DNA from: Macrostomum lignano
Lineage: Eukaryota
DNA length: 64,000 nucleotides
Assembly: GCA_002269645.1 (NCBI GenBank)
Contig: NIVC01003539.1
Span: 28,224-92,223, forward strand
Direction: 5' to 3'
Below are positions 44,001 through 63,345 of the stretch, piece after piece (positions within the stretch are counted from its first letter, which is position 1; each line of letters starts with the position of its first letter). The position numbers and the translations under genes are program-made. The notes beneath the pieces were generated by a model. The model was not told the DNA's origin, did no database searches, and saw only the letters and a list, made by a program, of their open reading frames with translations.

Positions 44001-44289
44001 ACGACTTGATTGAAATTGCGTAACCATATTGCTAACTCGAAGTGAGACTGATACTGGCTGACTGAGAAATTGATTATGTCATAACTTTTTACTCCAATTG
44101 ACTTGCTGTAAGAATTGAATTATAAGGGCCACAATTCATGTTCTCCAATTGAAAAGAGATAGCCCTGATGCGAACAGACTGGAATGCTAATGTAGCGACC
44201 TGGGTTCGAGTCTTAGAAGCGCAAAATAATTTTTTTATTAAAACACCTTAAAAACTAAAAAACTGCTAAACATAAAAAAAGCGCAATAG

Positions 44290-47200
44290 AAGAGCCACCA
44301 TGTCAAACCTAAAGGAGCCACCATGTCGAACATTAAAGAACCACCATGTCGAACATAAAAGAGCCACCATATCGAACATAAAAGAGTTACCATGTTAAAA
44401 ATTAAAGAGCCACCATGTCGAACATAGAAGAGCCACCATGTCGAACATAGAAGAGCCACCATGTCAAACATTAAAGAGCCACCATTTCAAACCTAAAGGA
44501 GCCACCATGTCGAAAATTAAAGAGCCACCATGTCGAACATAAAAGAGCCACCATATCAAACATAAAAGAGTTACCATGTCAAACATTAAAGAGCCACATT
44601 GTCAAGCATTAAAGACCCACCATTTCAAACCTAAAATAGTTACCATGTCAAACATTAAATAGCCACCATGTCAAACATTAAAGAGCCACCATGTCGAACA
44701 TAAAAGAGCCACCATATTAAACATAAAAGAGTTACCATGTCAAACATTAAAGAGCCACCATGTCGAACATTAAAGAGCCACCATGTCAAACATTAAAGAG
44801 CCACCATGTCGAACATTAAAGAGCCACCTTGTCAAATATTAAAGAGCCACCATTTCAAACCTAAAGAAGCCACCATGTCGAACATACAAGAGCCACCATG
44901 TCGAACATAGAAAAGCCACCATGTCAAACATTAAAGAGTCACCATGTCAAACATTAAAGAGCCACCGTTTCAAACCTAAAAGAGCCACCATGTTAAAAAT
45001 TAAAGAGCCACCATGTCAAACATAAAACAGACACCATTAAGAACATTAAAGAGCCACCATGTCAAATATAAAACAGCCACCATTTCGAAAATTAAGGAGC
45101 CACCATTTCAAAAATTTAAGAGCCGCTATGTTAAACATTAAAGGGCCACCTTGTCAAATATTAAAGAGCCACCATTTCAAACCTAAAAGAGCGACCCTGT
45201 CGAACATACAAGAGCCACCATGTCGAACATAAAAGAGCCACCATGTCGAACATACAAGAGCCACCATGTCGAACATAGAAAAGCCACCATGTCGAACATA
45301 GAAAAGCCACCATGTTAAACATTAAAGAGCCAATATTTCAAACCTAAAGGAGCCACCATGTCGAACATAAAAGAGTCACCATGTTAAAAATTAAAGAGCC
45401 ACCATGTCGAACATTAAAGAGCCACCATTTCAAACATTAAAGAGCCACCATGTCAAACATTAAAGAGCCACCGGTTCAAACCTAAAAGAGCCACCATGTC
45501 GAACATTAAAGAGCCACCATGTCAAACATAAAACAGACACCATGTCAAACATTAAAGAGCCACCATGTCAAACATTAAAGAGCCACCGGTTCAAACCTAA
45601 AAGAGCCACCATGTCGAACATTAAAAAGCCACCATGTCAAACATTAAAGAGCCACATTGTCAAACATTAAAAAGCCACCATTTCAAACCTAAAAGAGCCA
45701 CCATGTCAAACATTAAAGAGCCACCATGTCAAACATTAAAGAGCCACCTTGTCAAATATTAAAGAGCCACCATTTCAAACCTAAAGAAGCCACCATGTCG
45801 AACATACAAGAGCCACCATGTCGAACATTAAAGAGCCACCATATCAAACATAAAAGAGTTACCATGTCAAACATTAAAGAGCCACCATGTCAAACATTAA
45901 AGAGCCACCATGTCGAACATAAAAGAGCCACCATATCAAACATAAAAGAGTTACCATGTCAAACATTAAAGAGCCACCATGTCGAACATTAAAGAGCCAC
46001 CATGTCAAACATTAAAGAGCCACCTTGTCAAATATTAAAGAGCCACCATTTCAAACCTAAAAGAGCCACCATGTCGAACATTAAAGAGCCACCTTGTCAA
46101 ATATTAAAGAGCCACCATTTCAAACCTAAAGAAGCCACCATGTCGAACATACAAGAGCCACCATGTCGAACATAAAAGAGCCACCATATCAAACATAAAA
46201 GAGTTACCATGTTAAAAATTAAAGAGCCACCATGTCGAACATAAAAGAGCAACCATGTCAAACATAAAACAGACACCATTAAGAACATTAAAGAGCCACC
46301 ATGTCGAACATTAAAGAGCCACCATGTCAAATATAAAACAGCCACCATTTCGAAAATTTAAGAGCCGCCATGTTAAACATTAAAGGGCCACCTTGTCAAA
46401 TATTAAAGAGCCACCATTTCAAACCTAAAAGAGCGACCCTGTCGAACATACAAGAGCCACAATGTCGAACATAAAAGAGCAGCTATGTAGAACATAAAAG
46501 AGCCACCATGTCAAACATAAAAAAGCCACCATGTCAAACATAAAAGAGCCAACATGAAGAACATTAAAGAGCCACCATGTCGACCATTAAAAGAGCCACC
46601 ATGTCGAACATACAAGAGCCACCATGTCGAACATAGAAAAGCCACCATGTCGAACATAGAAAAGCCACCATGTTAAACATTAAAGAGCCAATATTTCAAA
46701 CCTTAAGGAGCCACCATGTCGAACATAAAAGAGTCACCATGTTAAAAATTAAAGAGCCACCATGTCGAACATTAAAGAGCCACCATGTCGAACATTAAAG
46801 AGCCACCATGTCAAACATAAAACAGACACCATGTCAAACATTAAAGAGCCACCGGTTCAAACCTAAAAGAGCCACCATGTCGAACATTAAAGAGCCACCT
46901 TGTCAAATATTAAAGAGCCACCATTTCAAACCTAAAGGAGCCACCATGTCGAACATTAAAAAGCCACCATGTCGAACATTAAAAAGCCAACATGTCAAAC
47001 ATAAAAGAGCCACCATGTCAAACCTAAAAAAGCCACCATGTCAAACATAGAAGAGCCACCATGTCAAACATAATAGAGCCACCATGTCAAACATTAAAGA
47101 GCCACCATGTCAAACATAGAAGAGCCACTATGTCAAACATAAAAGAGCCACCATGTCGAACATAAAAGAGTCACCATGTTAAAAATTAAAGAGCCACCAT

Positions 47201-47709
47201 GTCGAACATTAAAGAGCCACCATGTCGAACATTAAAGAGCCACCATGTCGAACATTAAAGAGCCACCATATCAAACATAAAAGAGTTACCATGTCAAACA
47301 TTAAAGAGCCACCATGTCGAACATTAAAGAGCCACCATATCAAACATAAAACAGACACCATGTCAAACATTAAAGAGCCACCATGTCGAACATTAAAGAG
47401 CCACCATGTCAAACATAAAACAGCCACCATTTCGAAAATTAAGGAGCCACCATTTCGAAAATTAAAGAGCCGCCATGTTAACCATTAAAGGGCCACCATG
47501 TCAAACATTAAAGAGCCACCATGTCGAACATAAAAGAGCCACCATGTCGAACATTAAAGAGCCACCATGTCAAACATTAAAGAGCCACCGGTTCAAACCT
47601 AAAAGAGCCACCGTGTCGAACATAAAAAAGTCAACATGTCAAACATAAAAGAGCCACCATGTCAAACCTAAAAAAGCCACCATGTCAAACATAGAAGAGC
47701 CACCATGTC
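44290..47709. repeat. 23-bp satellite GAGCCACCATGTCGAACATTAAA; resumes at 62436 to about 62545
   Basis: Well over 100 variant units. The register continues across the Polinton insertion. Confidence 0.97.
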
Positions 47710-47801
47710 AGTAGTATACGTTTTTTTGACACAAAGCCGATTTCCTTATGGCGAAATACATAGTAAGTACAGGCCCAAAAAAATGGCAGAGTCTGAAATT
47801 T
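47710..47801 (+). repeat. Left terminal inverted repeat (92 bp)
   Basis: Reverse complement of 62344-62435 with one mismatch. Confidence 0.97.
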
Positions 47802-48047
47802 GCCGTGCACGCAAACTAGCTTTTACGCAATGAATTAACCAATTAGCTGAATCACTTTTACGCAAACACCTGTCTATCCACCTAAATTCTATCCGCAATG
47901 AATGCAGCTAATTACAAGCCCAACCAAAATTCAATTTGACACAAAGCTTATTTCGCGTATAACTTAACGCATTTAAATTCTTCTTTTCAAGCAGTATTGT
48001 ATATTTCAACTAGATACAAACACAATTTGACGCACAAATTAGCGAGT

Positions 48048-48611
48048 TTACAAATATTGAGGCAGCACTCGTAAAACAAAATTGCGTAATTTAGCATACA
48101 AGTATCGAAACGAACCAGTGCGAATTATATTCCGTTTAAAAGCGCTTCGAATAAAACACTCTAGGTTTCCTCTGGTAGTCAACTTATGAAAAATATAAAA
48201 AATTACCCAAAATCCACAACTTCCACTCTGTGGGTCTTGGATAGCAAAGCGACTATAACACCAATTTTTCGAATTTCCACATTCTTTTCCTAGCCATTTT
48301 GCTATTCTTGGCAATGGTACTAGACCAAGAGAATCAAAATATTCACCAAGTCGTTTGCTACCGCGACCTGCTCGATGACCATAAACCCAAACGCATACCC
48401 AATGTTTTCCGGGCAGGTTGGAGACGTCAGTATTAACGATAAAAAAATAGTCTTTACCGTCTAAAGGTAAGCGTCTAAGTCCACCAACAAAGTTTTGAGG
48501 AAAAACACCAAGAAATACAACATTTAAAAAATGTGCGCACAATTTCGATACAACATTGCGAAGGAAGCGATCTGTTACACCACGATCTAGGATAGAATCA
48601 ATTACTTCCAT
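48048..48611 (-). CDS. Adenain-like cysteine maturation protease
   Basis: IVNTD...PGKHW (His), EYFDSLG (Asp), IQDPQSGSCGFW (Gln, Cys). Overlaps the MCP stop by 10 nt. Confidence 0.93.
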   Translation of the reverse strand: MEVIDSILDRGVTDRFLRNVVSKLCAHFLNVVFLGVFPQNFVGGLRRLPLDGKDYFFIVNTDVSNLPGKHWVCVWVYGHRAGRGSKRLGEYFDSLGLVPLPRIAKWLGKECGNSKNWCYSRFAIQDPQSGSCGFWVIFYIFHKLTTRGNLECFIRSAFKRNIIRTGSFRYLYAKLRNFVLRVLPQYL

Positions 48612-49924
48612 ACTGTGCCAGGAACAATGTCGCGAAGTTCAGTCAGTTGCAGTTGCTTGTCAAATATACCTCCAAATATGACGTTGTACACGGTACTAGT
48701 TGCAGCATTGAAGCGTAACTCTAGTTTTACATTTCCTTCCTTATACAGTTGCACTCCCCGTCCGACACCAGGTTCACTTCCAAGACTGAATGCAAAAATT
48801 GAGTAACCATTGGCGTAATCCAGCATATTAAATCCAATATCTCGTCCCTGTAGATAGATTCCAAGCTGTTGTAGCAAAAAATTATACTCTGTCACACAAT
48901 CATCTCCAAAGTTTGTCTGCAGCGGACGCGATGGTACCGAGTCTCCATTCACAAACACACCAATGCTGCTCACATTTGCATGCTCAAAGTTGAACGGATT
49001 TGTGTCCATGCTTCCATTGAATGCCTTGTTGCTTACGATTGCCATCAATAAAAGCCGTGGTACCCCACTAGGAAACAAATTTTCATGCGTATGGCTAGAC
49101 GATCCTCGGGGTATAGTAAACGTACCAAGGCTTAGACTTCGGTGCGGATATAATGCATTGTGACTTTTAAGTCCATGAGCATGTGCACTGATAACACTCG
49201 GCGAGGGTTGAACAAACCGCAATCGTAGTTCTGCACGCAAAAACTTGATCTCATAGTCTTTTAAAACCGCACCAGCTTCTAATGTTGACCCGCTCAGGAC
49301 AAATTTACTTTTTGCCGGTATGAGCTTGATCCGTAGTGGTGTCTTTGATAGTAGATACCGAGGCTGACGAAACAAATCCAAGAATAACGGCCCCGATACA
49401 GTGCACCGCCTATTGTTAGCAATGAGCGCCTGCCTCTTTGTTCGTCCATCGTTTTCACTTGTTGCATTCATTTTACCAGCTGTATCCTTGTAAAACCCCC
49501 ACGGCAGTAAACCAGCCTTCTGAGCTGTATGTCCATATTCCAGTAATGTAAGAAGCATAGCCTTGTATGGATACATAAAACTACCACCTTCAACTACAGT
49601 ATCGCCAATAGTAAATTGAACGTCCTCAAACAATGTTCCAATAACCAAATTATTCAAACAAACAAAATTTTTCGTTGCATCTATAGGTTCACCTTCACTA
49701 TCACTAACGCTGAAGCATACCGTGAGCACAGTTTCTTGTAGATCCAAATACAAATCGCCTGCAGGCACAACTTCAAATTCGATAGGTGATCCTTTTGTAA
49801 TACCATGTTGCGGTTGAATGTTAGTATATCGATTATCCAAAACACTAAACTGAACAGGACTTTGATCAAATAGCGACAATTCACTTTTAAGAGCAGCAAT
49901 ATCAGGTCCAAGCAAATGGTTCAT
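48602..49924 (-). CDS. Major capsid protein (double jelly-roll, Polinton hexon-like)
   Basis: 440 aa from ATG 49924. KSELSLF...P.Q...GSPIEF...DLYLDLQETVL, GPLFLDLFRQPRYL, FNGSMDTNPFNFEH and EGNVKLELRF recalled as Polinton MCP motifs. Confidence 0.88.
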   Translation of the reverse strand: MNHLLGPDIAALKSELSLFDQSPVQFSVLDNRYTNIQPQHGITKGSPIEFEVVPAGDLYLDLQETVLTVCFSVSDSEGEPIDATKNFVCLNNLVIGTLFEDVQFTIGDTVVEGGSFMYPYKAMLLTLLEYGHTAQKAGLLPWGFYKDTAGKMNATSENDGRTKRQALIANNRRCTVSGPLFLDLFRQPRYLLSKTPLRIKLIPAKSKFVLSGSTLEAGAVLKDYEIKFLRAELRLRFVQPSPSVISAHAHGLKSHNALYPHRSLSLGTFTIPRGSSSHTHENLFPSGVPRLLLMAIVSNKAFNGSMDTNPFNFEHANVSSIGVFVNGDSVPSRPLQTNFGDDCVTEYNFLLQQLGIYLQGRDIGFNMLDYANGYSIFAFSLGSEPGVGRGVQLYKEGNVKLELRFNAATSTVYNVIFGGIFDKQLQLTELRDIVPGTVWK

Positions 49925-49925
49925 G

Positions 49926-50384
49926 CTACTTTTCAAACAGACTAAAAAGTTTCTTGCTTGCAGTAGCAGTTCGACGTTTTCCTATACCACCGGTCTTCTT
50001 GCGTTTTCTTTTGTTCACGCGTCCCTTTCCACACTGTCTTGTTCGTCGTTTCTTTTGCCGTTTCTTCTTTCCTAAGCTTATAGCCACTCCACTGGTTCTT
50101 TTCCTTCGCTTTGGTCTCGAAACTGCAGTTGTATTAAACATCTCTTCGCTCGATTCTGTGTCCAAGTGACGCTTCCGACCCATACCAATTTTTGCTGTCG
50201 CACTTTTCAAATACTCCAGACCACGATCCAAGAAATCTTTCTTTGCGTTGCGTAGTACAGGATACACCAATCTGTCCGCCAAATTTGACAAAAAACCGTA
50301 ACCTTCGTAAACAGGAATGCCATATCCACCTCCACCTTCAGCAGATCTATTCGGACCAGAATAAAAAGCAAAAATAGGATCCAT
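49926..50384 (-). CDS. Basic putative virion core / DNA-condensing protein
   Basis: ATG 50384. Gly-rich GGGGYG...YEGYGFL head and a very Lys/Arg-rich C-terminus. Position between integrase and MCP. Confidence 0.7.
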   Translation of the reverse strand: MDPIFAFYSGPNRSAEGGGGYGIPVYEGYGFLSNLADRLVYPVLRNAKKDFLDRGLEYLKSATAKIGMGRKRHLDTESSEEMFNTTAVSRPKRRKRTSGVAISLGKKKRQKKRRTRQCGKGRVNKRKRKKTGGIGKRRTATASKKLFSLFEK

Positions 50385-50425
50385 TTCAACAGTCTTCTCT
50401 TCGTCATGCAATCCCAATTCATGTG

Positions 50426-51586
50426 TTACTTATACACTTTAGAAAATAGTTTAGCAGTCTTTGCGTCAAGATCATTTTCGTTTAACCACTGACTTCTTGA
50501 GATTGGCATACCTTTCCATTTTACTAGATACAGACGACTTCCATTTTTCGCTCGATCAGTTTCAATAACTTTTTCAATTTCATTAGGTGTTTCATCTGTC
50601 TCGTTTACCAACATTAGTTCCGCTTGGTTAAACCTTCCTTTCAGCACTTCAAATCCATCTTCAGGGTCCACTAATTCGTACATTGGCGGGTCTGTCAAGT
50701 GTACACGATGAATGCGATATTTTGAATTACTCCAAGTCGTAGTGTATCCTTTTTCAAATGTTCCTCGACGTCGTGTAATTCTAACCCAATCACCAACTTT
50801 AAATTTATTCTCATTCTTTTTAGTGTACGACTTCGCAAACATTTTGTCCCACAAAATTCCTTGTAAATGCGGGTCTGTCTCTACCCGTTTTGGTGTTTCT
50901 CCACTCAAGGATCGATGAGGACTAGAGTTGAAATTATCTTCCAATTGCGGTAAAATGTCAAACCATCGAGGTAAATTTTTTGCTCGAAAGTATCGTAATA
51001 GACGTTCCTTTAACGAGCGGATAAATCGTTCAGCCATGCTTGCCTTGTAATTGCTTTGGCTAACAAAAAATCGAACTCCTTCCTGTTTCAGCATTTGACG
51101 TGTAGCTCTTCCGAGAAACTCCATACCAGCATCACCTTGTAAATAAACAGGCTTAAAACCACTTCGAAAAATCTCTAGTAATACTTGACTAACTTCTGAA
51201 GGCTTCTTTGTACGCAATGGTCTTAGTCGTACAACTCTAGTAAAACAGTCGATAAGAACAAGTATGTAACGATAACCTCGATTTTCCGTCTTGTATTGAG
51301 GTAAATCTGCCAAATCGATTTGAAACTGAAACTTTGCAACTGGTGGCACACTAATTTTTGGAGTTGGAAAGTTTCGTCGTGTTTTTCGAAATAAATGATG
51401 CTCATTTGTTGATCGCACCCAATTATCAACTTCGCGCTTTGCAACTTTGTTCGTAATCTGTGGAAACTTTTTACGTACTTCACGAACAAGTATAGTCTTG
51501 TTACCACTAAATGAAGTAGGCCTGTTCAAGTTAAAAAAAGCATCCGTCAAAAATTCTTCAATTTCCTTACGCACTCGCTTCATCAT
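50426..51586 (-). CDS. RVE (DDE) integrase with C-terminal chromodomain
   Basis: FQIDLADL (D), YLQGDAGMEF (D), KASMAERFIRSLKERL (E). Chromodomain EIEKVI...YLVKWKGMP...QWLNENDL. Confidence 0.96.
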   Translation of the reverse strand: MMKRVRKEIEEFLTDAFFNLNRPTSFSGNKTILVREVRKKFPQITNKVAKREVDNWVRSTNEHHLFRKTRRNFPTPKISVPPVAKFQFQIDLADLPQYKTENRGYRYILVLIDCFTRVVRLRPLRTKKPSEVSQVLLEIFRSGFKPVYLQGDAGMEFLGRATRQMLKQEGVRFFVSQSNYKASMAERFIRSLKERLLRYFRAKNLPRWFDILPQLEDNFNSSPHRSLSGETPKRVETDPHLQGILWDKMFAKSYTKKNENKFKVGDWVRITRRRGTFEKGYTTTWSNSKYRIHRVHLTDPPMYELVDPEDGFEVLKGRFNQAELMLVNETDETPNEIEKVIETDRAKNGSRLYLVKWKGMPISRSQWLNENDLDAKTAKLFSKVYK

Positions 51587-51867
51587 CAGTTAGATTGATG
51601 CTAGTCGTTTGACAGTTGCAACAAAAGAACGAAGCCTCGATCGAATCTCCGTCAGTATCCTCGTTGTGCTCCTTTCCCAGAAACGGCACACATTCAGATT
51701 TTATGCAAAAAAACTCACAGAGACGAATCAAAAGTTTTTGGAAGATAGATGACATGGTTTGTCTTATTAAACTATATATTTTTCATAAACAAAAAATTAA
51801 CCTTTTTAAAAAGCTTATAGTGCTCGAATCAATTTTGTTAAAACGTAATCTGTAATTTTAAAACAAC

Positions 51868-52557
51868 TTAATTCAGTGTTTGATAATTTTCAAACAGACT
51901 AAGATCCTCCTTTGCAACAGTTTTTGGAGCAGACATTAGCTCGTTTCGTACATGACGCCCGATTTGGTTTGCTGCGATTCCACGTTTTCGAAGAAAGTCT
52001 AAAAATGTTTTTAGTCCACTAGGCGGTTGAGTCTCGTGTCGCTTAAGCGGTCTGTCTCGAACAACATATTCCATGAGATCTTGTATCTCGGCATCAGTCA
52101 AATTAGCCAGCATTGGTTCTGCATTCTTGTCCATGTCCGAAAATAGGTTTTGAGCGAGAGCTTCGAAACGTGGTAAAAAAACTTTAGGAATTTCCCTTGA
52201 TTCGCTGGCATATGAACTTCTTACAGTAGTCCCTTTGCGAACAAGTGACAGATTGTCCTCGTCTCCAGTGCGATAGACTTTGCGCAATTTTAAAAGTTTG
52301 TCTTCCAATCTGCTTCGTTTCAATTGAGCTGTGTAATTTGGCTCCTTTTCCATTTCCTTGTCCAAGTTATCCATTTGGTCTCTCATTTCCACCATATTTT
52401 TTGCCAGAGCATCTTGCGGTGCGTCTAAAACTTCAGTTTTTCGAGGTGTCTCAGCAGTTGGTGACGATCCTTGCTCTGCACCTTGACATGCAGATTGATA
52501 CACAGATTCAGGTACTAGATACATTCGTTGAAAACTACTACTCTCGTTAGTTCGCAT
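51868..52557 (-). CDS. Hypothetical Polinton protein (229 aa, coiled-coil-rich)
   Basis: Clean ATG-to-stop ORF in the gene array. N-terminal RMYLVPE resembles the KMxLVP starts I recall from Polinton proteins. Confidence 0.7.
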   Translation of the reverse strand: MRTNESSSFQRMYLVPESVYQSACQGAEQGSSPTAETPRKTEVLDAPQDALAKNMVEMRDQMDNLDKEMEKEPNYTAQLKRSRLEDKLLKLRKVYRTGDEDNLSLVRKGTTVRSSYASESREIPKVFLPRFEALAQNLFSDMDKNAEPMLANLTDAEIQDLMEYVVRDRPLKRHETQPPSGLKTFLDFLRKRGIAANQIGRHVRNELMSAPKTVAKEDLSLFENYQTLN

Positions 52558-52567
52558 TATATTCCTA

Positions 52568-52995
52568 CTACTTTCGTTGAATTGATCGTATTAAATTCGC
52601 TGCTCCCGCGGCGGTACCAACTACTCCAGACGTTATCCCAAGCGCAGTGCTTATAGCAGGTAGAGCGGCAATAATTGGAGCCAAAAAAGGTAAAAATCCT
52701 CCGTGTTGGACAAGTATTTTCCTTTTTGCAGTAATTGGAGTCTTCTGTTCCAAAAGCTGGCGTATATATCTGCGATGCTTCTCAAGTCGTCTTTTGTTAC
52801 AGTTACTAATTTTAATACGTCCACTAATAATATTAAACAGAAAGTCTACTAGACATCGTATCTCCGACTCTGAAAGTGTTTGTAAAAAACTTTTTCTCTG
52901 CTTTGGATGCTTTAGCCGATAAACAATTTGTAGTAAAAAAGCACACTGACACAATGAGCGAGCATTTTGTTTTCCTTTTCTGTTAGTTCGCTCAT
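52568..52995 (-). CDS. Conserved Polinton virion protein with QHGG/FLPFLAPII amphipathic tail (protein VI-like); start unresolved
   Basis: K.RK..L......I..L.D...N...G.I.I....KRRL.KH...IRQL...KRKILVQHGGFLPFL pattern. No in-frame ATG. ATG 52995 joins if the A6 run at 52935-52940 is really A7. Confidence 0.72.
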
Positions 52996-53051
52996 TCTTA
53001 CAAAACAAATTCACAAAATTTTCTATTACACAATTAATCTTTGCTTATAAA

Positions 53052-54041
53052 TTAGTCCGACCTATGTTTAAAATGCAGTACGACAACAACGTGTGCTCCC
53101 GGATCAAAATTAAACGGTTTTCCGCGCTGGTCCGATAGTCGAATCGAAATCTCGTGAATTTGTTGTCGATTTGTTTTCAAGTAGTAGGGTGTTTGCAATG
53201 CACTGCTATCGCGTATAAGTTCTCCGTTTTTCTTTTGTTGGAGTTCCACAACTCGAAGCAACGGTACTGATGTACTTCCCACTGCTTGATACTCGATTAT
53301 ATCTGTGTAACAGTACATGTAAACCGTTTTACTAGGCATCGGAGAAGGTAGCACAGCATCCAAGTAGGTTTTGTTAATGCGCCAAACACGATTTCTCAAC
53401 CAATATTGGTGTACTTTGATGTACACTTCTCCTTCCGTTTTTCGAAGATAGTCTCCATGCGAAACAAGTCGTATAGCTTCACCAGGCGATAGAACACAAT
53501 AAAAAACATAATAGTTCTCAGGTACTAGCGCTAGAGTATTGTCGAGACTTTTTATCAAATCCAAGTATGAACCATCCGGTGGTTGTACACTACCAGCGGC
53601 AGGTTTTGATAATTTTTCCGAGACAAGTCCAGAAAGTTTCTTCCAAGAGTCAAATTTGAAAGCGTCCATAAATGTAACTGGTAGTTCTAATCCAATAGTT
53701 TTTTCGCCTGAATTTCGTAAAAGCCAGGCAAATTTTTCATCTGTACCAGACGGTTGCCAGGAAACGTAAGCATCCAAGTCTGCCTCTGCCCAAACACGAC
53801 CCCAATAGTTTTTCTTTAATCGTATTATTGAGTCAATGTCCGCAAAATATGGAACTTCAAATCGACGCTCACGATGAGCATTTGGCGTCGTAATTGCTCC
53901 ATGGCACAGTAATTCAACTAGTGCAACCTCGAAGAATCCGTTCAATAAATTTATTGGTTCAGTTAGTCGCACTCGAAATTCATTAGGCGAGTTGGTTTCG
54001 TAACTGATATCGTTTGACGGCAAAAAAACGTAAAAACTCAT
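53052..54041 (-). CDS. Minor capsid protein (penton, single jelly-roll)
   Basis: ATG 54041. FYVFLPSN...NSPNEFRVRL..PINL..GFFEVALVE and C-terminal YCYTDIIEYQAVG...PLLR...ISIRLSDQRG.PF.F...VVLHFK. Confidence 0.87.
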   Translation of the reverse strand: MSFYVFLPSNDISYETNSPNEFRVRLTEPINLLNGFFEVALVELLCHGAITTPNAHRERRFEVPYFADIDSIIRLKKNYWGRVWAEADLDAYVSWQPSGTDEKFAWLLRNSGEKTIGLELPVTFMDAFKFDSWKKLSGLVSEKLSKPAAGSVQPPDGSYLDLIKSLDNTLALVPENYYVFYCVLSPGEAIRLVSHGDYLRKTEGEVYIKVHQYWLRNRVWRINKTYLDAVLPSPMPSKTVYMYCYTDIIEYQAVGSTSVPLLRVVELQQKKNGELIRDSSALQTPYYLKTNRQQIHEISIRLSDQRGKPFNFDPGAHVVVVLHFKHRSD

Positions 54042-54098
54042 TTTGAAATAAAACACAAACTAATATTGACAACAGTTTATAATTTGCTTATAATAATA

Positions 54099-54788
54099 TT
54101 ACACAAACTTTGCATCACATTCACGAGTATAGACAACTTGTTCATCACCAGAAAATATTCCTGTTCTCAATCGTAAAAAATCTGGTGTCACTTGCCGCAG
54201 GTCAATGAATAAATATGAAAAAGGTTTGTTATTTGTTGCGTCTTCATACACATTCACTAGAAACCTACTATTACGCGGATACATTTGTCGACCGAGATGT
54301 TCAACTGTGGTTCGATCGCGCACACTACGAGTTAGACAAATATAACTAGCTGATAAACTTCGCATGCGTGCTTCTGGATCAGACTTGTTAAAAAGACCTT
54401 GACAAAGGTACAGACAAGTCAAAGGGATATGATGCGCATGCTTTGTAAACATACTAGTAAATTCTGGCAACTTAGCAATCTCGCTTTGCAAGTCGTCAAC
54501 AACAACCAAATCGTGTGGTAAAAAACGATTAATCATCTGTGGTGTGAATTCGGGTACAAAAACAATAGGGTCAAGACCGCTTTTTTGCCAGCATGTTCTA
54601 ATTCGTTGTTGATCGTCTGGTTTCAAACTTGATCCATGGCACCAAACAAGACGGCACGGTTTTTTATCAAATAATTCTTTTCGTTCAGTCAACAAACGCA
54701 ACGTCCATTCAGTTTTACCCGAGTTTGAAGGTCCAGCAATAATAAATGTAGAATCGTGAGCTAGTTGCATATTGTATGGCTGCTGCAT
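54099..54788 (-). CDS. A32/FtsK-like genome-packaging ATPase
   Basis: ATG 54788. Walker A AGPSNSGKT, Walker B LVVVDD, HH..LTCLYLCQ, KPFSYLFIDL. Confidence 0.93.
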   Translation of the reverse strand: MQQPYNMQLAHDSTFIIAGPSNSGKTEWTLRLLTERKELFDKKPCRLVWCHGSSLKPDDQQRIRTCWQKSGLDPIVFVPEFTPQMINRFLPHDLVVVDDLQSEIAKLPEFTSMFTKHAHHIPLTCLYLCQGLFNKSDPEARMRSLSASYICLTRSVRDRTTVEHLGRQMYPRNSRFLVNVYEDATNNKPFSYLFIDLRQVTPDFLRLRTGIFSGDEQVVYTRECDAKFV

Positions 54789-54790
54789 TT

Positions 54791-55234
54791 TCAAGCACCA
54801 AAGCGTTGCTTAACTTGCATAACCTTGGTAACCAACTTCGCAGCTAGTTTTTCTTTCCAACCAGTAGACGGATCGTGGGCAATCTCTCGTGCACCAGATT
54901 CTAATAGCTTATCAGCTTTTAACCTCTCTTGCACGTCAGAATTTTTATCATAGGCCACGTCGTGAAGCATGCACAAATTGTCAAGCCGATTAATTCCTCG
55001 TTGTCCTTTTGCTAGCCTAGCTTGCAGTTGCGTACCTGGACCACAAAACTGATATCCGCCGGGTAAATGTGCTTCAAATGGTAAATGATTAATTAACCAA
55101 TTTACGACACCATAACCTTGTTGCTTTTTATTAATCTTTCTAATAGATTTCTTCTTTTTACGAATGCTCTTCTTTTTCTTTTTAAAACCTCGATCTTTCG
55201 CTGGAGACATTTTTACAACATATATTTTAGGCAT
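54791..55234 (-). CDS. Parvovirus-type phospholipase A2 domain virion protein
   Basis: Ca-loop GYQFCGPGT and catalytic NRLDNLCMLHDVAYD. Basic N-terminus followed by QQGYG. Confidence 0.9.
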   Translation of the reverse strand: MPKIYVVKMSPAKDRGFKKKKKSIRKKKKSIRKINKKQQGYGVVNWLINHLPFEAHLPGGYQFCGPGTQLQARLAKGQRGINRLDNLCMLHDVAYDKNSDVQERLKADKLLESGAREIAHDPSTGWKEKLAAKLVTKVMQVKQRFGA

Positions 55235-55325
55235 AAATTTTTAAAATTGCTTATAGTATTTACAAAGCTCTCGCATAGTGCACCAATCACCAAAGAAAAA
55301 AATCAGTTTATTATTATTATTATAC

Positions 55326-55808
55326 TTATTGGCCAGTGCTGCCAAAGCCGCCAAAGCCGCGCCGCTTGGTCGGCGGCTCAATCATCCGAATCGAATTGTC
55401 TGCTTCAGTCACATAGACTGAAGCAAGCACGGCCTGCTCCAGAACCAGTTGTGCAATACTGAGCCCGGCATAGTACTCAAAGTCTTCCGGACTGTAATTA
55501 AACAAGACTATACAGATTTCACCAGTATAGTCGGGGTCGATTACGCCACCGCCAACAAATAAGCTGTGCAGAGCCATGCTGGAACGTCCCGCTATCCTGC
55601 CATAGGTACCAGGCGGTAAGCGAATTTTGAGTCCGGTTCGCACACTCCGGGACTCGTAGGCCGGAATGGTACCATCGACGCCAGCGCAAAGATCATACCC
55701 GATCGACCCGACAGTTTTTCGGGTCGGAATCGTTGCCGAATCGTATAGACGTTCAACTAAAAGCTTACGATCAGTTAGTTGTTGTTGCTGCTGCTGCTCG
55801 GGATTCAT
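55326..55808 (-). CDS. dut: Trimeric dUTPase
   Basis: All five motifs present: GYDL, GRSS, GVIDPDYTGE, AQLVL, RGFGGFGSTG. ATG at 55808. Confidence 0.96.
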   Translation of the reverse strand: MNPEQQQQQQLTDRKLLVERLYDSATIPTRKTVGSIGYDLCAGVDGTIPAYESRSVRTGLKIRLPPGTYGRIAGRSSMALHSLFVGGGVIDPDYTGEICIVLFNYSPEDFEYYAGLSIAQLVLEQAVLASVYVTEADNSIRMIEPPTKRRGFGGFGSTGQ

Positions 55809-56132
55809 GTCGATTCTTGTAGCTGAAAGTTTAAAAAAAAGTTTTTTTTCTTGAAACATGAACGATAGCACTACATTTACGTCTACTACAAACACAAGCT
55901 TAGTCTTGAGAATCTAACTATAAAAAATATACTTTTTCAAATAATTAAACACAAAAAAGTGCTAAAATTATAATTTAAACGAATGCCGGTATCATTTATT
56001 TATTGTAAATAATGATCAATGAAAAAATTAATGATGGGTTACAGTCTTCTATAGCATGCTATTACTTTGTACAACAAAAGAGATCAGAGCATATTGTTAA
56101 TTAATTAGCCAAGTGCCAGTGTCCAAAGGGTA

Positions 56133-56431
56133 GCGAATTAATTGAACTTGTCCAGGATCGCTTCGTATCGAAGAAGCTTAGTGCAAGTTTTCTTTGTTGC
56201 ATCAAAAAAAACTTTCTGTTTTCGAGAACGAATGGACTGTATGCGCGAAAACACAAGTTGTCGCTTGTGTAAGACTCTTAAATAGTCTTGATGCTTTAAA
56301 CTGCTCTGTGCGGCTTTAGAAGCAGTACTGCTCCAGCTTTGCGACCGATTGAGACTGGAACTTTAAACGATTGCTGCTTAACCAGACCGGACCGGACTGG
56401 ACCGGACCGGACTGGACCGGACTCCCCGCGC

Positions 56432-56463
<32 letters not shown>

Positions 56464-57177
56464 ACCACCACCACCGCCGCCACCACCACCACTGCCGCCG
56501 CCCGCCCCCACACCACCGTGGGACGTATTTGTTGACAGTGTGCTTGCATGGCTTTTGCGATAAACGCAGAGCATCAAGTCTAGCTGCTCGATTGCTCTAT
56601 ATTGCCAATTACTACCTCGAGATTGAAAATTGTCAATTTTTATTAACAACTGATTAATAACGCGTGCGAACCAGTCATTGTAGGCCTCGGGAGATAACAG
56701 CATGTCACTGTTTGTAATCGTCTCATCAAATGATATTGTCGCAATGTTGGTATTAAAATAGACCGAAATGATCTCTTCGCTGCTCGAGCCATCGTTGTCG
56801 TCTGCTGCTGTTTTCGGTCGAAATAGTGTCACTTTCAAGTGAAAGCAGACTCTTATTAATAAACTGGGTGAGCCAATTTTTTCCAATATTTTAAATATTG
56901 GTTCTCTTAAAGACGCAATCAACTCGCCAGGAAGTAACTCGCCAGAGCTGTTGCCTTGTTGTTCAAGAGTGGGAGTAAATTCGACAAAATTTACCCGACC
57001 ACGATGAGCTGACTCGCGCAAAGCGATGGACCACCCATCTGGTGGGTTTTCGATCAGGTTTTGCAGCGATCCGGTCAGTAATCGTTGCGGTGAAAAACAA
57101 GCACCATGCGAGTGAGCATGCAGCTCGGCTTGATTACTGAACTTTTTTCTGCAGATTTGGCATTGTGCACGCGGCAT
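56133..57177 (-). pseudogene. Remnant of protein-primed PolB: C2H2 finger plus N-terminal domain, low-complexity junction, then a C-terminal-like fragment in another frame
   Basis: CQICRKKF...LHAHSH. YFNT...IDNFQSRGSNWQYRAIEQLDL resembles the GSGW region of Polinton PolB N-termini. After the (CCG/CCA)n-(GGACC)n patch, another frame reads LKHQDYLRVL...IQSIRSRKQKVF (about 56330-56133). No exonuclease or palm motifs anywhere in the element. Confidence 0.6.
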
Positions 57178-57400
57178 TGTGTGCACCTAGCTCGACAACG
57201 AGCGTATCGAGCATAATATTAATAGATGATCCGGTTTGTCATTTGCGGCTGTAAGAAAAATGATGATTTGGTTAGTTATAGGTATAGCTGACACGTTTAC
57301 TATTAGAGAAAACAATTGGTAAATAAATAAAAAAAGACAAAATGTTTGTAAAAGAATGCATCGCAACTGCGATTTGACAGCAATTGTTTACTTGTTAAGT

Positions 57401-57958
57401 TTAGTTATTAACAGAGATTAAAAAATCCTTGACATGGTTAAGAATATTATTCAATTCATGAGTGTTTTGAACGCCCATAATAACAAACTTTTTCGAAAAA
57501 AATATGTTACAAAAAAGCCTTGGTTTTGATGCTGATCTAACAGAAACTGCTTGTGGGAAATTTTCTGCATCGTATCCAACCAGATAATTCGAATAGTAGC
57601 CTGCATATCTTTTTAGACTAGAGAAACCGAATTTTGGCCAAAGATGACCAATAAAGCCGACATAGGTACTGCTCTGAATTTTTACTGAATCAAAATCTAC
57701 ACAATTAATAGTGTCGTTGATAAATCGTAAAACTGAGACTATCTGAGAATTTGATTTACAGCCATATATAGTTAGTTTTCCTGCTGGATAAAGTTGGATT
57801 TTAGCATTTGAATAAATTGTCTTTAGCATTGTTGGTCGGCTTAGGAATAGTTTGCAAAACCGGTTTCTGGTCTGTAGCTTCTGTTTGGTCTGCTTTAAAT
57901 CAAATTTTTCAAACGGGTGCAGCTTCAGACTCGCAGTAACTATTAATAGGACAAGTCG
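57401..57958 (-). CDS. TATA-binding-protein-like factor (about 185 aa open frame after a splice acceptor; first ATG only at 57829)
   Basis: Two TBP repeats: LIVTASL...FDLK...NRFCK...AKIQLYPAGKLTIYGCKS and KIQSSTY...YDAENFPQAV...KPRLFCNIFFSKKFVIMG. Compare TBP TALIFSSGKMVCTGAKS, KIQNMVG, YEPELFPGL and KPRIVLLIFVSGKVVLTG. Confidence 0.8.
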   Translation of the reverse strand, partial: RLVLLIVTASLKLHPFEKFDLKQTKQKLQTRNRFCKLFLSRPTMLKTIYSNAKIQLYPAGKLTIYGCKSNSQIVSVLRFINDTINCVDFDSVKIQSSTYVGFIGHLWPKFGFSSLKRYAGYYSNYLVGYDAENFPQAVSVRSASKPRLFCNIFFSKKFVIMGVQNTHELNNILNHVKDFLISVNN

Positions 57959-58168
57959 CTAAAACGGAAAATAAATAATAAGAAAAGTTAAACATGACTA
58001 TACTATCGTAAATTCTAATATTAAATTACAAAACCTGGTTAGCGTACAAGGAGTAGCAAAAAATGTTTTGAGCTTTTCCCTAAAAAATAATATTTCCCTA
58101 GCCAAAAATTTGATAAATATAGTGGAATAAGTTAGTTAAAACTTGGATAAAATTAGTCAAAAATTTTG

Positions 58169-59366
58169 TTACTCATCATCAGAGCTGCTGTACGAGTCGT
58201 CCGATGAAGACACGCTAGCTGTAGTAGCGTCCGCAGCAGCACGCTTTAAAAATGCTGTCTCCTTGGACGCTACCCTGGTTCCAGAGGCAGGTGTACTCAC
58301 CAAGATCTTTGCTGGTGGAGCCTCCACCCAGTCTGTGCCATCTGCACCAGCTTCGGCAGAATTGTTTTGCTGTTTTGCACCGCTGCGTTTTCGAACTTGC
58401 TTTTTAGGCGGCGGTTCAATAGAGGCTGGCGCTGCATTCGATGTAGTCGACTTCTTCGATACGGTGGTGGTAGACCGACGCTTTGCAGGTGACTTGGCAG
58501 GTGTCACCTGGCTTGAATTCTGCAGGCTTTGTTCATTTGCTTCTTCTTGCTCACAGGTAGATGTTGGGGACGGACTCCTGCTTCTAATTGCTGACTTGGT
58601 CGCGGGTAGGTGTGCAAGCACTCCCTTGAACATGTCGAGGCGCTGCAACATGTTGTCGGAAGATTCTATGAGTGTCAGAGAGCGCACAGCGAATGTAATG
58701 CGCCAGACGAGGCAGCCTTTTGGACAATACAAGCTCGTTGCTTGCACTGTCATTTGGTAGGTACCGCTGACACCTTTGAAATCGGAAATGGACACCTCCT
58801 TCCCGTGTGGATGATCGTTGCTGATCCTGATTGTGGCACAAGGGTAAGCAGGCTTTATAGCCAGCCATTGTTGAGGCACAAACTCGAGGACGTCGTTAGC
58901 ATGCTGATGAGCTGGTTTTGTTAGTCGTGCCAAGGGTCGAGCATCTTGAATCTCGTTCAACTTGACCGATAGACCTTTTTCGACTTGACTGCAAAACATT
59001 ATATAAATTATGAATATAGTTTCCTAAAATTAATTGTATAAATTTAATATGGTGCTCACCGGAGAGAGTGGAAGAGTTCCTTATCGCAGCTGTCTGGATG
59101 AAATTGGACACTTACTGCGTCGCGAGAGTCGTGTCTGCAAGACGGATGATCGAGCTCTGGCCTTTCTGCGATTCCACGAAAAAGCTCCATTGGAGCCTTG
59201 GTTTGCAATATAATTGGGTACCATTTTGTACACTCGATTGATGGTTTCCACGCAATAGATCGAAACTGGCAGGACGAACCAGTCGTGGTTGTAGACTGCT
59301 CTCCAACGTAAAAATCGGACTCGAGTCGGAGCGTACAATTGACTCCGTCTTGATGCAAGCTGCCAT
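58169..59366 (-). CDS. Spliced gene, probable OB-fold single-stranded DNA-binding protein with acidic tail
   Basis: 71-nt GT-AG intron 59059-58989 joins ORF 59056-59379 in frame to ORF 58169-58999 (CG/T = Arg). PIILQTKAPMELFRGI resembles the T7-like viral SSB motif. Ends SSSDDSYSSSDDE. ATG 59366 needs one extra base at the 59310-59314 run. Confidence 0.6.
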
Positions 59367-60059
59367 GTCTTACAAGCAATTGAATATAGTATTTCTTTTG
59401 CTGTAATGATTGAGCTCATGAAAAATTGACCATTTCGGGTCTTGTATTTATAGCAAGCTTTGCATGCTGTTTGTGAACTAGTAAACAAATTTAATTGTTG
59501 CGTGCTGATTAAGACATTGTTGCGTGCCAAAGGTGGCATAAGTTTCTAGGGTGGGTTGCATGATTAGGTCTAATTTTACGCAAATGTAGGTTGATATTTT
59601 ATACAATAAAATTAATGAATCTTAGGCACACTAGTTATAAATTTGCAAGAGTAACACGATGGCAAGCGTTTAATAAGAAGACTGCTGGTTGCTGCTTCAT
59701 TAGATTGGTTTTGTTCTCAAGTAGAATGTAATTAAAATATTTTGCGACTTGAAAAATTAGCAATCTTGGATTTTAGAGTAAAAATAAGCTGCACGCGGTG
59801 CTATGAAATTAATTTATTGAAAGTTTTGCTTGCATGTTGGAATTTTTTAGCTCGCACGGTGACAAGAGATTGCTTGAGTAACCTATATATAGAGTGTTAC
59901 TTTTCAAACAGAAAAAGGTATAGTTGTAACTCAGCTTTTGCAGTCCTATATTGAGCAGAAGCTATATAGAGTTACACTATCATGCTGCGACGCGCAGCTT
60001 GTTGGGACTATAATGACTGCCGCTGCTATAACCGCATGCAGTCAGTGCAGTTGACACAC

Positions 60060-60770
60060 AAATGCTGTTTGGACTAAGCTAAATTACTGTGTTGAGACAG
60101 TTAAGCTGGACCACGGCTAAATCACTATTGATACGGTTAATTGCTACTAGACCCATGGCTAAATCACTGTACGTTGAGACGGTTAAGCTGGACCACGACT
60201 AAATCGCTGTACGTTGAGACGGTGGTTAAGCTGGACCATGGTTATAAAACTGGACGGGTGGTTAAGCTGGACGACTACAGCTAAAATTACTGTTGAGTCA
60301 GTTATGCTAGACCACAGCAGCCAAATCACAGTTGAGGTAAAGCTGACCATAGCTAATTCTCACTGTTGAGACGGGTGCTGCTGCTTGGCTCACAGCTAAA
60401 TAACTGGACAGTTAAGCTAATCGGACTACAGCTAAATCCCTGTTGAGACAGTTGCCTGGACCACAGCTAAAATCACTGTTGAGGCAGTTAAGTCTGGACA
60501 ACAGCTAAAATTACTGTTGAGACAGTTAAGCCTTGACTATAGCTAAATCATCGTTGAGGTAGTTAAGCCTGGACTATAGCTAAATCACTGTTGATGCAGT
60601 TTTAAGCTAGACCACAGCTAAATCATACTGCTGAGGCAAAAAAGCCGGACCACGGCTAAAAACTGTTGAGGCAAAAGCTGGACCACAGCTAAATCATACT
60701 GTTGAGGCAAAAGCTGGACCACAGCTAAATCATACTGTTGAGGCAAAAGCCAGACCATGGCTAAAGAAAC
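60060..60770. repeat. Array of about 18 diverged 34-42-bp units with an internal palindrome
   Basis: Consensus CTGTTGAGRCAGTTAAGCTGGACCACAGCTAAATCA containing AGCTG-N5-CAGCT. Confidence 0.9.
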
Positions 60771-60927
60771 GTATGAAAAAAAAATTATTTGCATGGATTA
60801 ATAATTTTTGTTTAATGATGACTGTACAAGATATTGACTTTATATTGAATTAAATAATTTCAATAAATGGCGAATAAAATTGAAAGAATTTTTTAGAATA
60901 ATGAATTTATAGAGATTATATTATTGA

Positions 60928-61566
60928 TTACAGACTTGTTTGATATATACTAAAAGAGCAATTACTTGGACACATTGCTGGCAAAATTTTATGAAGAGTT
61001 AGAAAAAATGTCTTTTTAAGATAGGTCCCAATATTCAAATACTTGAGTTGTATTACAGGTCTTTGTAATTCTACTTGGTAGAAGCCTGTGCTCATTTGAG
61101 AGACTTTTACAGACTTGATGTCCTTCTGTACAATAATTGGCGAGTTTAGCAGCGGTTGAACTTGGGTAGAAATAGCAATTGATGATGATGGTGTTTCAGT
61201 TGCTGTCGTTGGTTTGGTACTTGTAGGCTTACTGCAAGTTTGCTTTGTTGGGTCATTGTAGCTGGTTGGTGATGGTGGTGGTGGTGCATACTGCAGTTGG
61301 TCAGTTGGTCGTGGGTTCGATTGCTGCCTAATTGACTGAATAACATCAGTTCTTGTGTAAATGCGATCTAGCTCAGTTGTCTGTCTCTCGACATGAATCG
61401 AGGTTACTCTGGCGAGAGATGTAGAATATGATGCTCTTGCAGCAGAATTGGATGTGGTGGTGTCGTGGCAAATGCGTTTGCACTGATCTGGAGGTGGCCG
61501 CGTGAAGAAACCATTCTTGAATGCTATAATAATGGATAAGATGAGGGAAATTTGGTATAGGTGCAT
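60928..61566 (-). CDS. Orphan 212-aa protein with signal-peptide-like N-terminus and Thr/Pro/Ser-rich middle
   Basis: MHLYQISLILSIIIAF, CKRIC, PPPP/TKPTT-rich stretch and CPSNC. Clean ORF on the same strand as all element genes. Confidence 0.55.
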   Translation of the reverse strand: MHLYQISLILSIIIAFKNGFFTRPPPDQCKRICHDTTTSNSAARASYSTSLARVTSIHVERQTTELDRIYTRTDVIQSIRQQSNPRPTDQLQYAPPPPSPTSYNDPTKQTCSKPTSTKPTTATETPSSSIAISTQVQPLLNSPIIVQKDIKSVKVSQMSTGFYQVELQRPVIQLKYLNIGTYLKKTFFLTLHKILPAMCPSNCSFSIYQTSL

Positions 61567-61584
61567 GTATACAATGTATATAGA

Positions 61585-61810
61585 AACTGAACTAGCAGAG
61601 AATCAGTCTAAACAGAAACCGAACTAGCAGACAATCAATCTAGAAATTCTGAACTAGCAGAGTATTAGTCTAAACAGAAACCGAACTAGCAGAAAATCAA
61701 TCTAGAGACTGAACAAACAGAGGATCGGTCTAAACAGAAACCGAACTAACAATCAATCTAGAAACTAAACTATAGCGAACAGTCAATCTAAAAAAGAAAA
61801 CTGAACTAGA
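61585..61810. repeat. About 30-bp degenerate tandem repeat upstream of the orphan ORF
   Basis: AACTAGCAGA.AATCA.TCTA units. A GTAAGA donor-like site lies just upstream on the minus strand (about 61828). Confidence 0.75.
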
Positions 61811-62343
61811 GTAGGTGATTATCTTACCTTGTTTAACATAGCGCTCGGCCAATTCCTGCTGACGTGATCGCTTCATTTCACTTAAGATGTAAGTATAGTT
61901 GAACAAGTAGTATAATGTAAACTTGGTTTAAGTTATTTAATATTTTCTGTGTCAGTGTGTTCGTATATATATATAGTATAAAGAAGAAGCATGTTGACGC
62001 AGTTGTTGACATAGTATCTGTAAACCATCTGCTCAAGTTGGTGCAAAAATTCTATAGGCACTCAAGAATAGATCATTTACTATCTTTCTTCAAAAGGGTG
62101 ATAATATTCACAAGTTTTCAATATTTCAAAAACACTTGAAATGTGTGAATAGCTTTGGAGTAAATTTGTCTTGAATGGAATCCTTTGAAGTGTGTTTGTG
62201 TCACCATTGCTAGAATCGGTTACTTGTATTTTGGACAGGTGGATATGCAATTCGTCTGAATAATCACGTTGCGTAAAAGATATTTAGCGTGCACTTGGAA
62301 TTTCAGACTGCGTGCACATGGAATTTCAGACTGCGTGCACATG

Positions 62344-62435
62344 AAATTTCGGACTCTGCCATTTTTTTGGGCCTGTACTTACTATGTATTTCGCCATAAG
62401 GAAATCGGCTTTGTGTCAAAAAAACGTATACTACT
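62344..62435 (-). repeat. Right terminal inverted repeat (92 bp), preceded by extra copies of a 23-bp unit (62296-62343)
   Basis: Ends ...AAAACGTATACTACT. Subterminal TGGAATTTCAGACTGCGTGCACA is repeated. Confidence 0.97.
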
Positions 62436-62639
62436 CATGTCGAACATAAAAGAGCCACTATGTCAAACATAAAAGAGCCACCATGTCAAACATAGAAGAG
62501 CCACTATGTCAAACATAAAAGAGCCACCATGTCAAACATTCAAGATATCCAATTTCAAATGTAAAGGTATAAAGCGCCATGCCAATTTAAAGGAGCCACT
62601 ATAAAGCTAAGGAAATTGTCGCTCTAGCTACTTATTGTC

Positions 62640-63195
62640 TGGATGGTTGCTATTTGGGGATGCTATCTATCTTGGGGATGCTTGCTATTTGGAGGATGCT
62701 TGCTTTCTGGGGGATGCTTGCTATCTGGGAATGCTTGCTATCTGGGGATGCTTGCTATCTGGGGGATGCTTGCTATCTGGGGATGTTTGCTATCTGGGGA
62801 TGCTTGCTATCTGGTGGATGCTTGCTATCTGAGGGATGCTTGCTATCTGATGATGCTTGCTATCTGGGGATGCTTGCTATCTGGGGTATGCTTGCTATCT
62901 GAGGGATGCTTGCTATCTTGGGGTATGCTTGCTATCTGAGGGATGCTTGCTATCTTGGGGATGCTTGCTATCTGGGGGATGCTTGCTATCTGCGGAATGC
63001 TTGCTATCTTGGGATGCTTGCTATCTGGGATGTTTGCTATCTGGGGGATGCTTGCTATCTGGGGGATGCTTGCTATCTGGGGATGCTTGCTATCTGGAGG
63101 ATGCTTGCTATCTTGGGATGCTTGCTATCTGGGAAATGCTTGCTATCTGGGAGAATGCTTGCTATCTGGAGGATGCTTGCTATCTGGGGATGCTT
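62640..63195. repeat. 18-19-bp minisatellite GATGCTTGCTATCTGGGG inside the Helitron
   Basis: Direct tandem units. Confidence 0.95.
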
Positions 63196-63345
63196 GTGGT
63201 CTTGGGAAGATTTCTTATTGCAATTCACTTTCATTGAGCAGTTTGTCTGTTGTCTTTGTGAAGGATTTTTTGGCTGTCTTTTTGTTAATTGTAGAGAACA
63301 GAGATTCTATCCAGATGTCCCCCATCGGGGGGCGAAGATTGCTAG

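Follow-up and report, generated by a model that had tools for sequence, protein, structure and literature searches.

Does the short word TATAAG(C), which recurs ahead of the virion genes of a Maverick/Polinton element, act as a promoter, and which factor would read it? The question arises from a 64,000-nucleotide stretch of the Macrostomum lignano genome (contig NIVC01003539.1, positions 28,224 to 92,223), referred to here as the window, in which a 14.7-kb copy of such an element occupies 47710..62435 on the minus strand, running 62435→47710. This copy belongs to a group of related copies, family A, and encodes a TATA-binding protein (TBP) of its own. An original prediction made from the sequence of the window held that host TBP drives the early genes and the element TBP the late ones. 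Our results indicate that TATAAG(C) almost certainly serves as a promoter element, placed at the TATA position, and that the element TBP probably reads it at the virion genes in place of host TBP, bringing in RNA polymerase II (Pol II) of the host late.

TATAAG sites ahead of the virion genes

All eight TATAAG sites of the original prediction, together with a GATAAGC at 54913, were present on the minus strand. In the virion half of the element (7,591 nt), TATAAGC occurred six times in the sense orientation and never in antisense, against a mean of 0.37 in shuffled sequences (0 of 300 shuffles reached six), and with Markov models of order 2 and of order 3 alike it came first among the 5,234 7-mers. 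Similarly, TATAAG was found eight times against a shuffle mean of 1.98 (0 of 300). The proposed enrichment was thus borne out. TATAAGC had been reported as missing from the replication half, and indeed not a single TATAAG was counted there; none of the six early halves compared contained TATAAGC.

Conservation was studied in five lineages of family A, each represented by one copy (capsid identity, 66 to 100%), whose fourfold-degenerate sites were identical at 24 to 33%, versus 26% for random sequence, i.e., silent sites were saturated. All five lineages had exact TATAAG[C/T] upstream of the major capsid gene, the minor capsid gene and the protein VI-like gene. Four had it upstream of the PLA2 gene, the core gene and a small open reading frame (ORF) before the integrase, and the lineage left over in each case carried a variant with a single mismatch. 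The gene names minor capsid, core, protein VI-like and SSB derive from the original prediction and from gene position. Since the motif was kept in lineages with saturated silent sites, an origin by chance or codon usage is refuted for these six conserved sites.

In the window, all on the minus strand, the TATAAGC of the PLA2-domain gene (55249..55255; exact in four lineages) lies 45 nt from the likely start at 55210. The predicted spacing of 21 nt probably does not hold, the start being most likely the second ATG, at which the ORF of a near-identical copy opens. The TATAAGC of the minor capsid gene (54086..54092) is 51 nt from its start and at 43 to 54 nt in all five lineages, and that of the protein VI-like gene (53043..53049; five lineages) is at 54 nt. 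The site at 51813..51819, originally assigned to a small ORF or the integrase, could be refined to the first gene of this pair, a 62-aa ORF 64 nt downstream (51567..51755), with TATAAGC exact in four lineages and TATATGC in the fifth. This unannotated ORF, with a Cys-Cys motif and a hydrophobic N terminus, has a homologue before the integrase in 5/5 lineages. The TATAAGT at 50428..50434, 50 nt before the core gene, is made up of the final codons of the integrase gene (TAT AAG TAA) and was found in four lineages, with TATTAGC in the fifth. Finally, the TATAAGC at 50076..50082, inside the core gene, precedes the major capsid gene by 158 nt, with an ATG-free leader; the word itself was found there in 5/5 lineages.

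The claim that almost every virion gene carries the motif stood for these six sites and failed for three of the nine genes, those for the ATPase, a 229-aa hypothetical protein and the protease, whose sites were rejected as conserved promoters. TATAAG[C/T] was found upstream of the ATPase and 229-aa genes in one of five lineages each: the GATAAGC at 54913 (minus strand) is TATAAGC in one other lineage and has no counterpart in three, and the TATAAGC at 52649..52655 (minus), inside the protein VI-like gene and 98 nt before the 229-aa gene, is absent from a 98% copy and is possibly lineage specific and of chance origin. The TATAAGG at 48739..48745 (minus), 134 nt before the protease gene, lies within conserved codons of the major capsid gene (Tyr-Lys-Glu-Gly) in 3/5 lineages, the others having TAC AAA or TAT AAA; it also occurs at the protease position in family C, which lacks a TBP, and may be a codon coincidence, so that its role is doubtful. 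TATAAG[C/T] also preceded the dUTPase gene in three of the five lineages, the window copy not being among them. In one A lineage (L012-L015, L020), a tandem duplication has placed four to six TATAAG sites ahead of PLA2.

Across the five virion modules, TATAAG appeared 36 times in sense and twice in antisense, and 13 of the 36 sites lay 40 to 59 nt ahead of an ORF start, compared with 2.7% for permuted words. The signal was mostly intergenic. Within the core gene, NNT ATA AGC was present in 5/5 lineages while preceding and flanking residues varied, codon use giving about 0.015 per lineage.

Geometry of the motif and the early unit

The distance from the motif to the homologous ATG was 41 to 64 nt for 20 of 26 conserved-class sites and 86 to 165 nt for the rest. 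Stray ATGs were distributed unevenly, with 18 at +7 to +37 from the first T and none in the 800 nt from +38 to the gene start, where 11.8 were expected. This distribution places the RNA start, probably, about 30 to 38 nt downstream of the motif, as for a TATA box. By contrast, at baculovirus TAAG initiators RNA begins at the second base of TAAG, according to the available part of PMC8789824, and the proposed analogy with those elements was not sustained: the bare word [AGT]TAAG was not enriched in the virion half (22 versus a mean of 29.8). Short baculovirus motifs can arise by chance, as the accessible portion of PMC13483298 notes. Four contig sets of guessed RNA status cover the virion module, but contigs cannot show starts, strand or level.

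The genes without a conserved site begin at most a few bases from the stop of the gene ahead of them, the ATPase 2 nt past that of PLA2. This arrangement suggests paired expression, in which the ATPase, 229-aa, integrase and protease genes would be the second genes of pairs.

The early unit (SSB-like/TBP/polB) is preceded by a canonical box, TATAAATA at 59445..59452 on the minus strand, as had been predicted for the SSB gene. TATAWAWR was found there in four of five lineages and TATAAAAT in the fifth, so that exon 1 of the SSB-like gene follows a canonical or near-canonical TATA in 5/5; the SSB-like label comes from an Atlas lead with scores of at most 0.90. A 71-nt GT..AG intron (58989..59059, minus) interrupts this gene, and its joint was present in contigs from two of four runs, X5 and X8, which come from two studies and are of guessed RNA status. 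Late in the same gene there is a predicted phase-0 splice donor (58295..58300, minus), one phase-0 GTRAG donor being found in 5/5 lineages, and the TBP frame opens at a phase-0 acceptor conserved in 5/5. The SSB-like exon is thus predicted to be joined to the TBP exon by splicing; the joint was absent from the four guessed-RNA contig sets examined. In several A lineages (L006, L010, L017, L161), an ORF that opens with a kinase-like P-loop motif follows TBP or is fused to it; it is absent from the window copy.

TBPs and boxes of the different families

The element TBP (57401..57958, minus) comprises two repeats, matches Pfam TBP, and gave an AF2 model (pLDDT, 94.7) with Foldseek TM scores of 0.66 to 0.77 to cellular TBPs, consistent with the two-repeat saddle fold. 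The acidic stirrup, which contacts TFIIB, is kept. In yeast TBP numbering, carried over via the colinear host TBP, two of the four intercalating phenylalanines (F190 and F207) are kept in the window TBP, F116 is Tyr and F99 is replaced. Family-A TBPs in general keep F190, P191 and F207, carry L114Q, F116Y, V122T and L205N, and have lost F99. Those of families B and D keep L114, carry V122S and F116Y, and have lost P191. All canonical contact residues are present in host TBP; this protein and a TRF2-like paralogue (L056, L057) are single open frames with three assembly matches each.

A Pfam TBP search of the genome gave 150 scored matches from 330 candidates, and eight of the nine fetched matches sit in a second Maverick family, B. 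At least 97 capsid matches were obtained when 96 of 475 candidates were scored. The top words in the virion modules were determined de novo. In family A, with its own TBP, the top word was TATAAGC (26 versus 2.1 expected, five lineages). In six family-B copies, also with their own TBP, it was (C)TTAAGAA (37 versus 4.6), giving a box (C/T)TTAAGAA. Family D, with a third TBP, yielded ATAAGAA (6 versus 0.38 in one copy), preceded by T or C. However, two lineages of family C, without a TBP or polB match, showed TATAAATA at the equivalent gene positions, the core-gene frame included, and in 25 outside lineages the top word was TATAAAA, with TCAGT-like bases at +30 to +34. The outside set started from 81 loci in 36 clusters, 11 of which were dropped as under 3 kb, and most loci were partial. 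Host H3 upstream regions had TATAAA in 7/16 and TATAAG in 0/16, near-duplicates included. The proposed co-occurrence of motif and TBP gene was therefore observed, variant boxes accompanying TBP in families A, B and D and TATAAA the elements in which no TBP match was found. The boxes set beside TBP-A, TBP-B, TBP-D and host TBP are TATAAGCA, CTTAAGAA, TATAAGAA and TATAAAAG, respectively. In family B, the first gene near the terminal inverted repeat (TIR) has a canonical TATA. Family C copies (L024-L037, L065-L068) are about 10 kb, TIR bound, and consist of the virion module plus integrase; one carries a Fic-domain gene.

The residue changes fit the box bases. Leu72, which corresponds to L114, is reported by a secondary source to clash with C or G at position 7 (PMC13566119); its change to Gln, found in 6/6 family-A TBPs, fits the C present at position 7 in 78% of their motifs, and families B and D, where Leu is kept, have A7. 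Similarly, P191 is reported, again second-hand, to force T at position 1 (PMC1636458), and its retention fits the T1 of family A (26 of 29 NATAAGC) and its loss fits the C1 that occurs in B and D. V122 may be linked to position 6, by pseudo-symmetry.

Taken together, the enriched, strand-specific and conserved motif would act as a TATA box, with RNA starting about 30 to 38 nt downstream. Host TBP would likely fire the spliced early unit first, from its canonical TATA. The element TBP, made via the predicted splicing onto the SSB-like exon, would then surpass host TBP in binding T1A2T3A4A5G6C7, with Leu114→Gln, Val122→Thr and Phe116→Tyr changing the preference and Phe190/Pro191/Phe207 kept; late timing is suggested by the gene class. 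The division claimed originally, with canonical TATA for the replication unit and a variant box for the virion genes, agrees with enrichment, conservation, TATA-type geometry and the contrast with TBP-less families. Somewhat short of an even chance is our estimate for a wider picture, in which Mavericks with captured TBPs run an early/late programme and co-resident families have private, orthogonal TBP-promoter pairs (TATAAGC, YTTAAGAA, YATAAGAA).

Several observations weigh against this proposal. The +37 cut-off of the ATG test was picked after the positions had been seen, the zone from +38 to the start consists mostly of Lys/Arg-rich capsid leaders, the test was not significant in family B (3 versus 6.3 expected), and a clear initiator signal sought in families A and B was not found. 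As for the TBPs, L114 was kept in TBP-D as we had predicted, but the prediction that Pro191 would be kept failed (Asn was found); C1 occurs in 3/7 family-D sites, and its fit to the lost P191 was noticed afterwards. Leu114→Gln and similar changes are common in other divergent TBPs. The family-B TBP gene itself lies behind a variant box, about 80 to 90 nt past CTTAAGAA (L051, L040, L167-L170), which would permit positive feedback. Major capsid and integrase trees group B with D and set A apart, so that at most two clades with a TBP (A; B+D) count as independent, to be compared with two that lack it (C; outside); the TBP tree, with long branches, is compatible with one or two captures. A TBP match was found in 0/81 outside loci, a weak negative since the loci are mostly partial.

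It could instead be that host TBP/TFIID reads TATAAGC as a deliberately weak TATA, so that the virion genes would be expressed only once replication has raised the template number, and the element TBP acts otherwise, e.g., competing with host TBP or on the early promoter. Such a weak box would also lie at the TATA position, and there are crystal structures of wild-type TBP on both of the single variants, G(-26) in 1qn5 and C(-25) in 1qn3, G6/C7 being structurally allowed. The missing Phe99, whose loss may weaken DNA binding by the family-A TBP, would also agree with it. We consider this unlikely, because it does not account for boxes that change from family to family along with the TBP, or for the TBP-less family C keeping TATAAATA in the same host. 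Specificity might also come from a protein other than the element TBP alone, e.g., the 229-aa protein, a counterpart of which occurs both in family B and in outside elements, or the TRF2-like paralogue; indeed, herpesvirus vTBP requires five partner proteins (PMC12529657, available portion). This is very improbable, since the 229-aa counterpart also occurs in TBP-less elements with TATAAA and it is the TBP residue changes that track the box bases.

Still less credit is due to a baculovirus-type TAAG initiator, or to mimicry of the late promoter of a helper large DNA virus read by the helper polymerase, as in mavirus/CroV. The TAAG core is common to families A, B and D and promoter mimicry by virophages is described in the literature, but a start at the second base of TAAG (PMC8789824, same portion) would leave 18 stray ATGs in the leaders, [AGT]TAAG is not enriched, the early genes are spliced, and three families show three different flanks in one host. 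A LEF-8 search of the host genome gave no match, but neither did the control search. Lastly, chance or a codon artefact, which would apply to the protease site and perhaps to 52655, is next to inconceivable for the motif as a whole, given its first rank among the 5,234 words, its excess in five saturated lineages, its strand specificity and its mostly intergenic location. The codon-preserving control was divided: the core-gene frame recurs in every lineage, but, to the detriment of our proposal, codon resampling found coding TATAAG unremarkable in 4/5 elements and coding TATAAGC borderline (1 to 27 of 400).

The element and its counterparts in known systems

The window element ends in AGTAGT and has TIRs of 104 bp (96% identity) and a 6-bp target duplication, as expected for AG-type Maverick/Polinton termini, and it combines an rve integrase, an adenain-type protease, a packaging ATPase and capsid proteins. 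Pfam matches cover the integrase (rve plus chromo), PLA2, dUTPase and TBP; the protease match is weak (Peptidase_C5, E 0.035), and the ATPase and capsid proteins were assigned via homology to other elements. Only the N-terminal part of polB is present, the catalytic part being deleted after a Gly-rich run (56296-55900), and ORFs of 1,276 to 1,454 aa occupy this place in other lineages. The spacing between TBP and ATPase was short (about 3.15 kb versus 6.3 kb) in 15 of 18 plus-strand copies of the window family compared, which indicates that the form present in high copy number derives from a polB deletion and keeps TBP and the virion module. The frames of the protein VI-like gene (~52975) and of SSB-like exon 1 (~59309) are broken in the window and open in other copies. 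The element is inserted into a 23-bp satellite (44150-47700, 62436-62540); a degenerate repeat array lies inside its early half (60100-60760), and a second, short-unit array lies past its left end (62640-63200).

Beyond the host genome, 98 divergent TBP proteins were matched, without DNA context. Two large metagenome groups (P0133-P0226) share with TBP-A a GRP-x-ML motif or F99P/L205N and probably come from other Maverick-like elements. Scans of viral contigs for TBP-bearing Mavericks gave 0, 0, 1, 3 and 0 loci, and the three TBP loci were not Mavericks.

In its TIRs, 6-bp duplication, chromodomain-bearing rve integrase, capsids, ATPase, adenain protease and PLA2, and in a putative pPolB of its longer relatives, the element resembles the Mavericks/Polintons (adintoviruses). 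Starrett et al. (PMC8502044, 10.1101/697771) give a TBP label in one of their figure legends, and the word "promoter" is absent from the portion of that text available and, by term search, from those of PMC11296320 and PMC11161782. A literature search, which did not extend to subscription papers or Repbase, brought up no paper that describes a promoter code in Mavericks or a role for their TBP.

If a TBP-gated late promoter operates, Mavericks/Polintons would have a virus-type cascade. This would account for quiet integrated copies, whose capsid genes would not be expressed in the host, and late genes could be recognised from sequence alone. The DNA face of TBP is near-invariant in cells, and three such pairs of TBP and box, occurring naturally within a single genome, would be a direct test of recognition rules: single-residue saddle changes would form a natural TBP specificity code and insulate the families. 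Yeast TBPm3 (TGTAAA), whose TATA specificity is altered by replacing a small number of minor-groove residues (PMC1636458), was engineered, whereas Maverick TBPs would be a natural series.

Baculovirus late promoters likewise place a TAAG core ahead of late structural genes. However, they use a four-subunit viral RNA polymerase (LEF-4/8/9, p47), as far as the sources available describe it, and start inside the motif, whereas the element has no RNA polymerase, appears to tolerate stray ATGs to +35 and shows no DTAAG enrichment. In mavirus and other virophages, too, a single motif recurs ahead of most virion genes, in a small element with a double jelly-roll capsid. Virophage promoters match giant-virus late motifs and borrow helper machinery, whereas the Maverick motif tracks a factor encoded on the element.

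The closest likeness is to the vTBPs of beta- and gammaherpesviruses (KSHV ORF24, EBV BcRF1, HCMV UL87; TATT(WAA)), where, according to the available part of PMC12529657, a virus TBP-fold protein with a more polar DNA-binding face serves a variant TATA before structural genes, early genes have canonical TATA, and host Pol II is used. In contrast, the Maverick protein is a stand-alone, cellular-type two-repeat TBP exon of ~185 aa in a 15- to 20-kb integrated element, its TATAAG motif varies at positions 6 and 7 (also 1 and 2 in family B) instead of position 4, and several putative family-specific codes coexist in one genome. No counterpart of the partners ORF18/30/31/34/66, which with ORF24 form a six-member complex, nor a Pol II-binding domain, was seen among the element ORFs. 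The Maverick TBP system would thus work like herpesvirus vTBP without being a member of that system, and, if so, would represent a second, independent origin of the same strategy.

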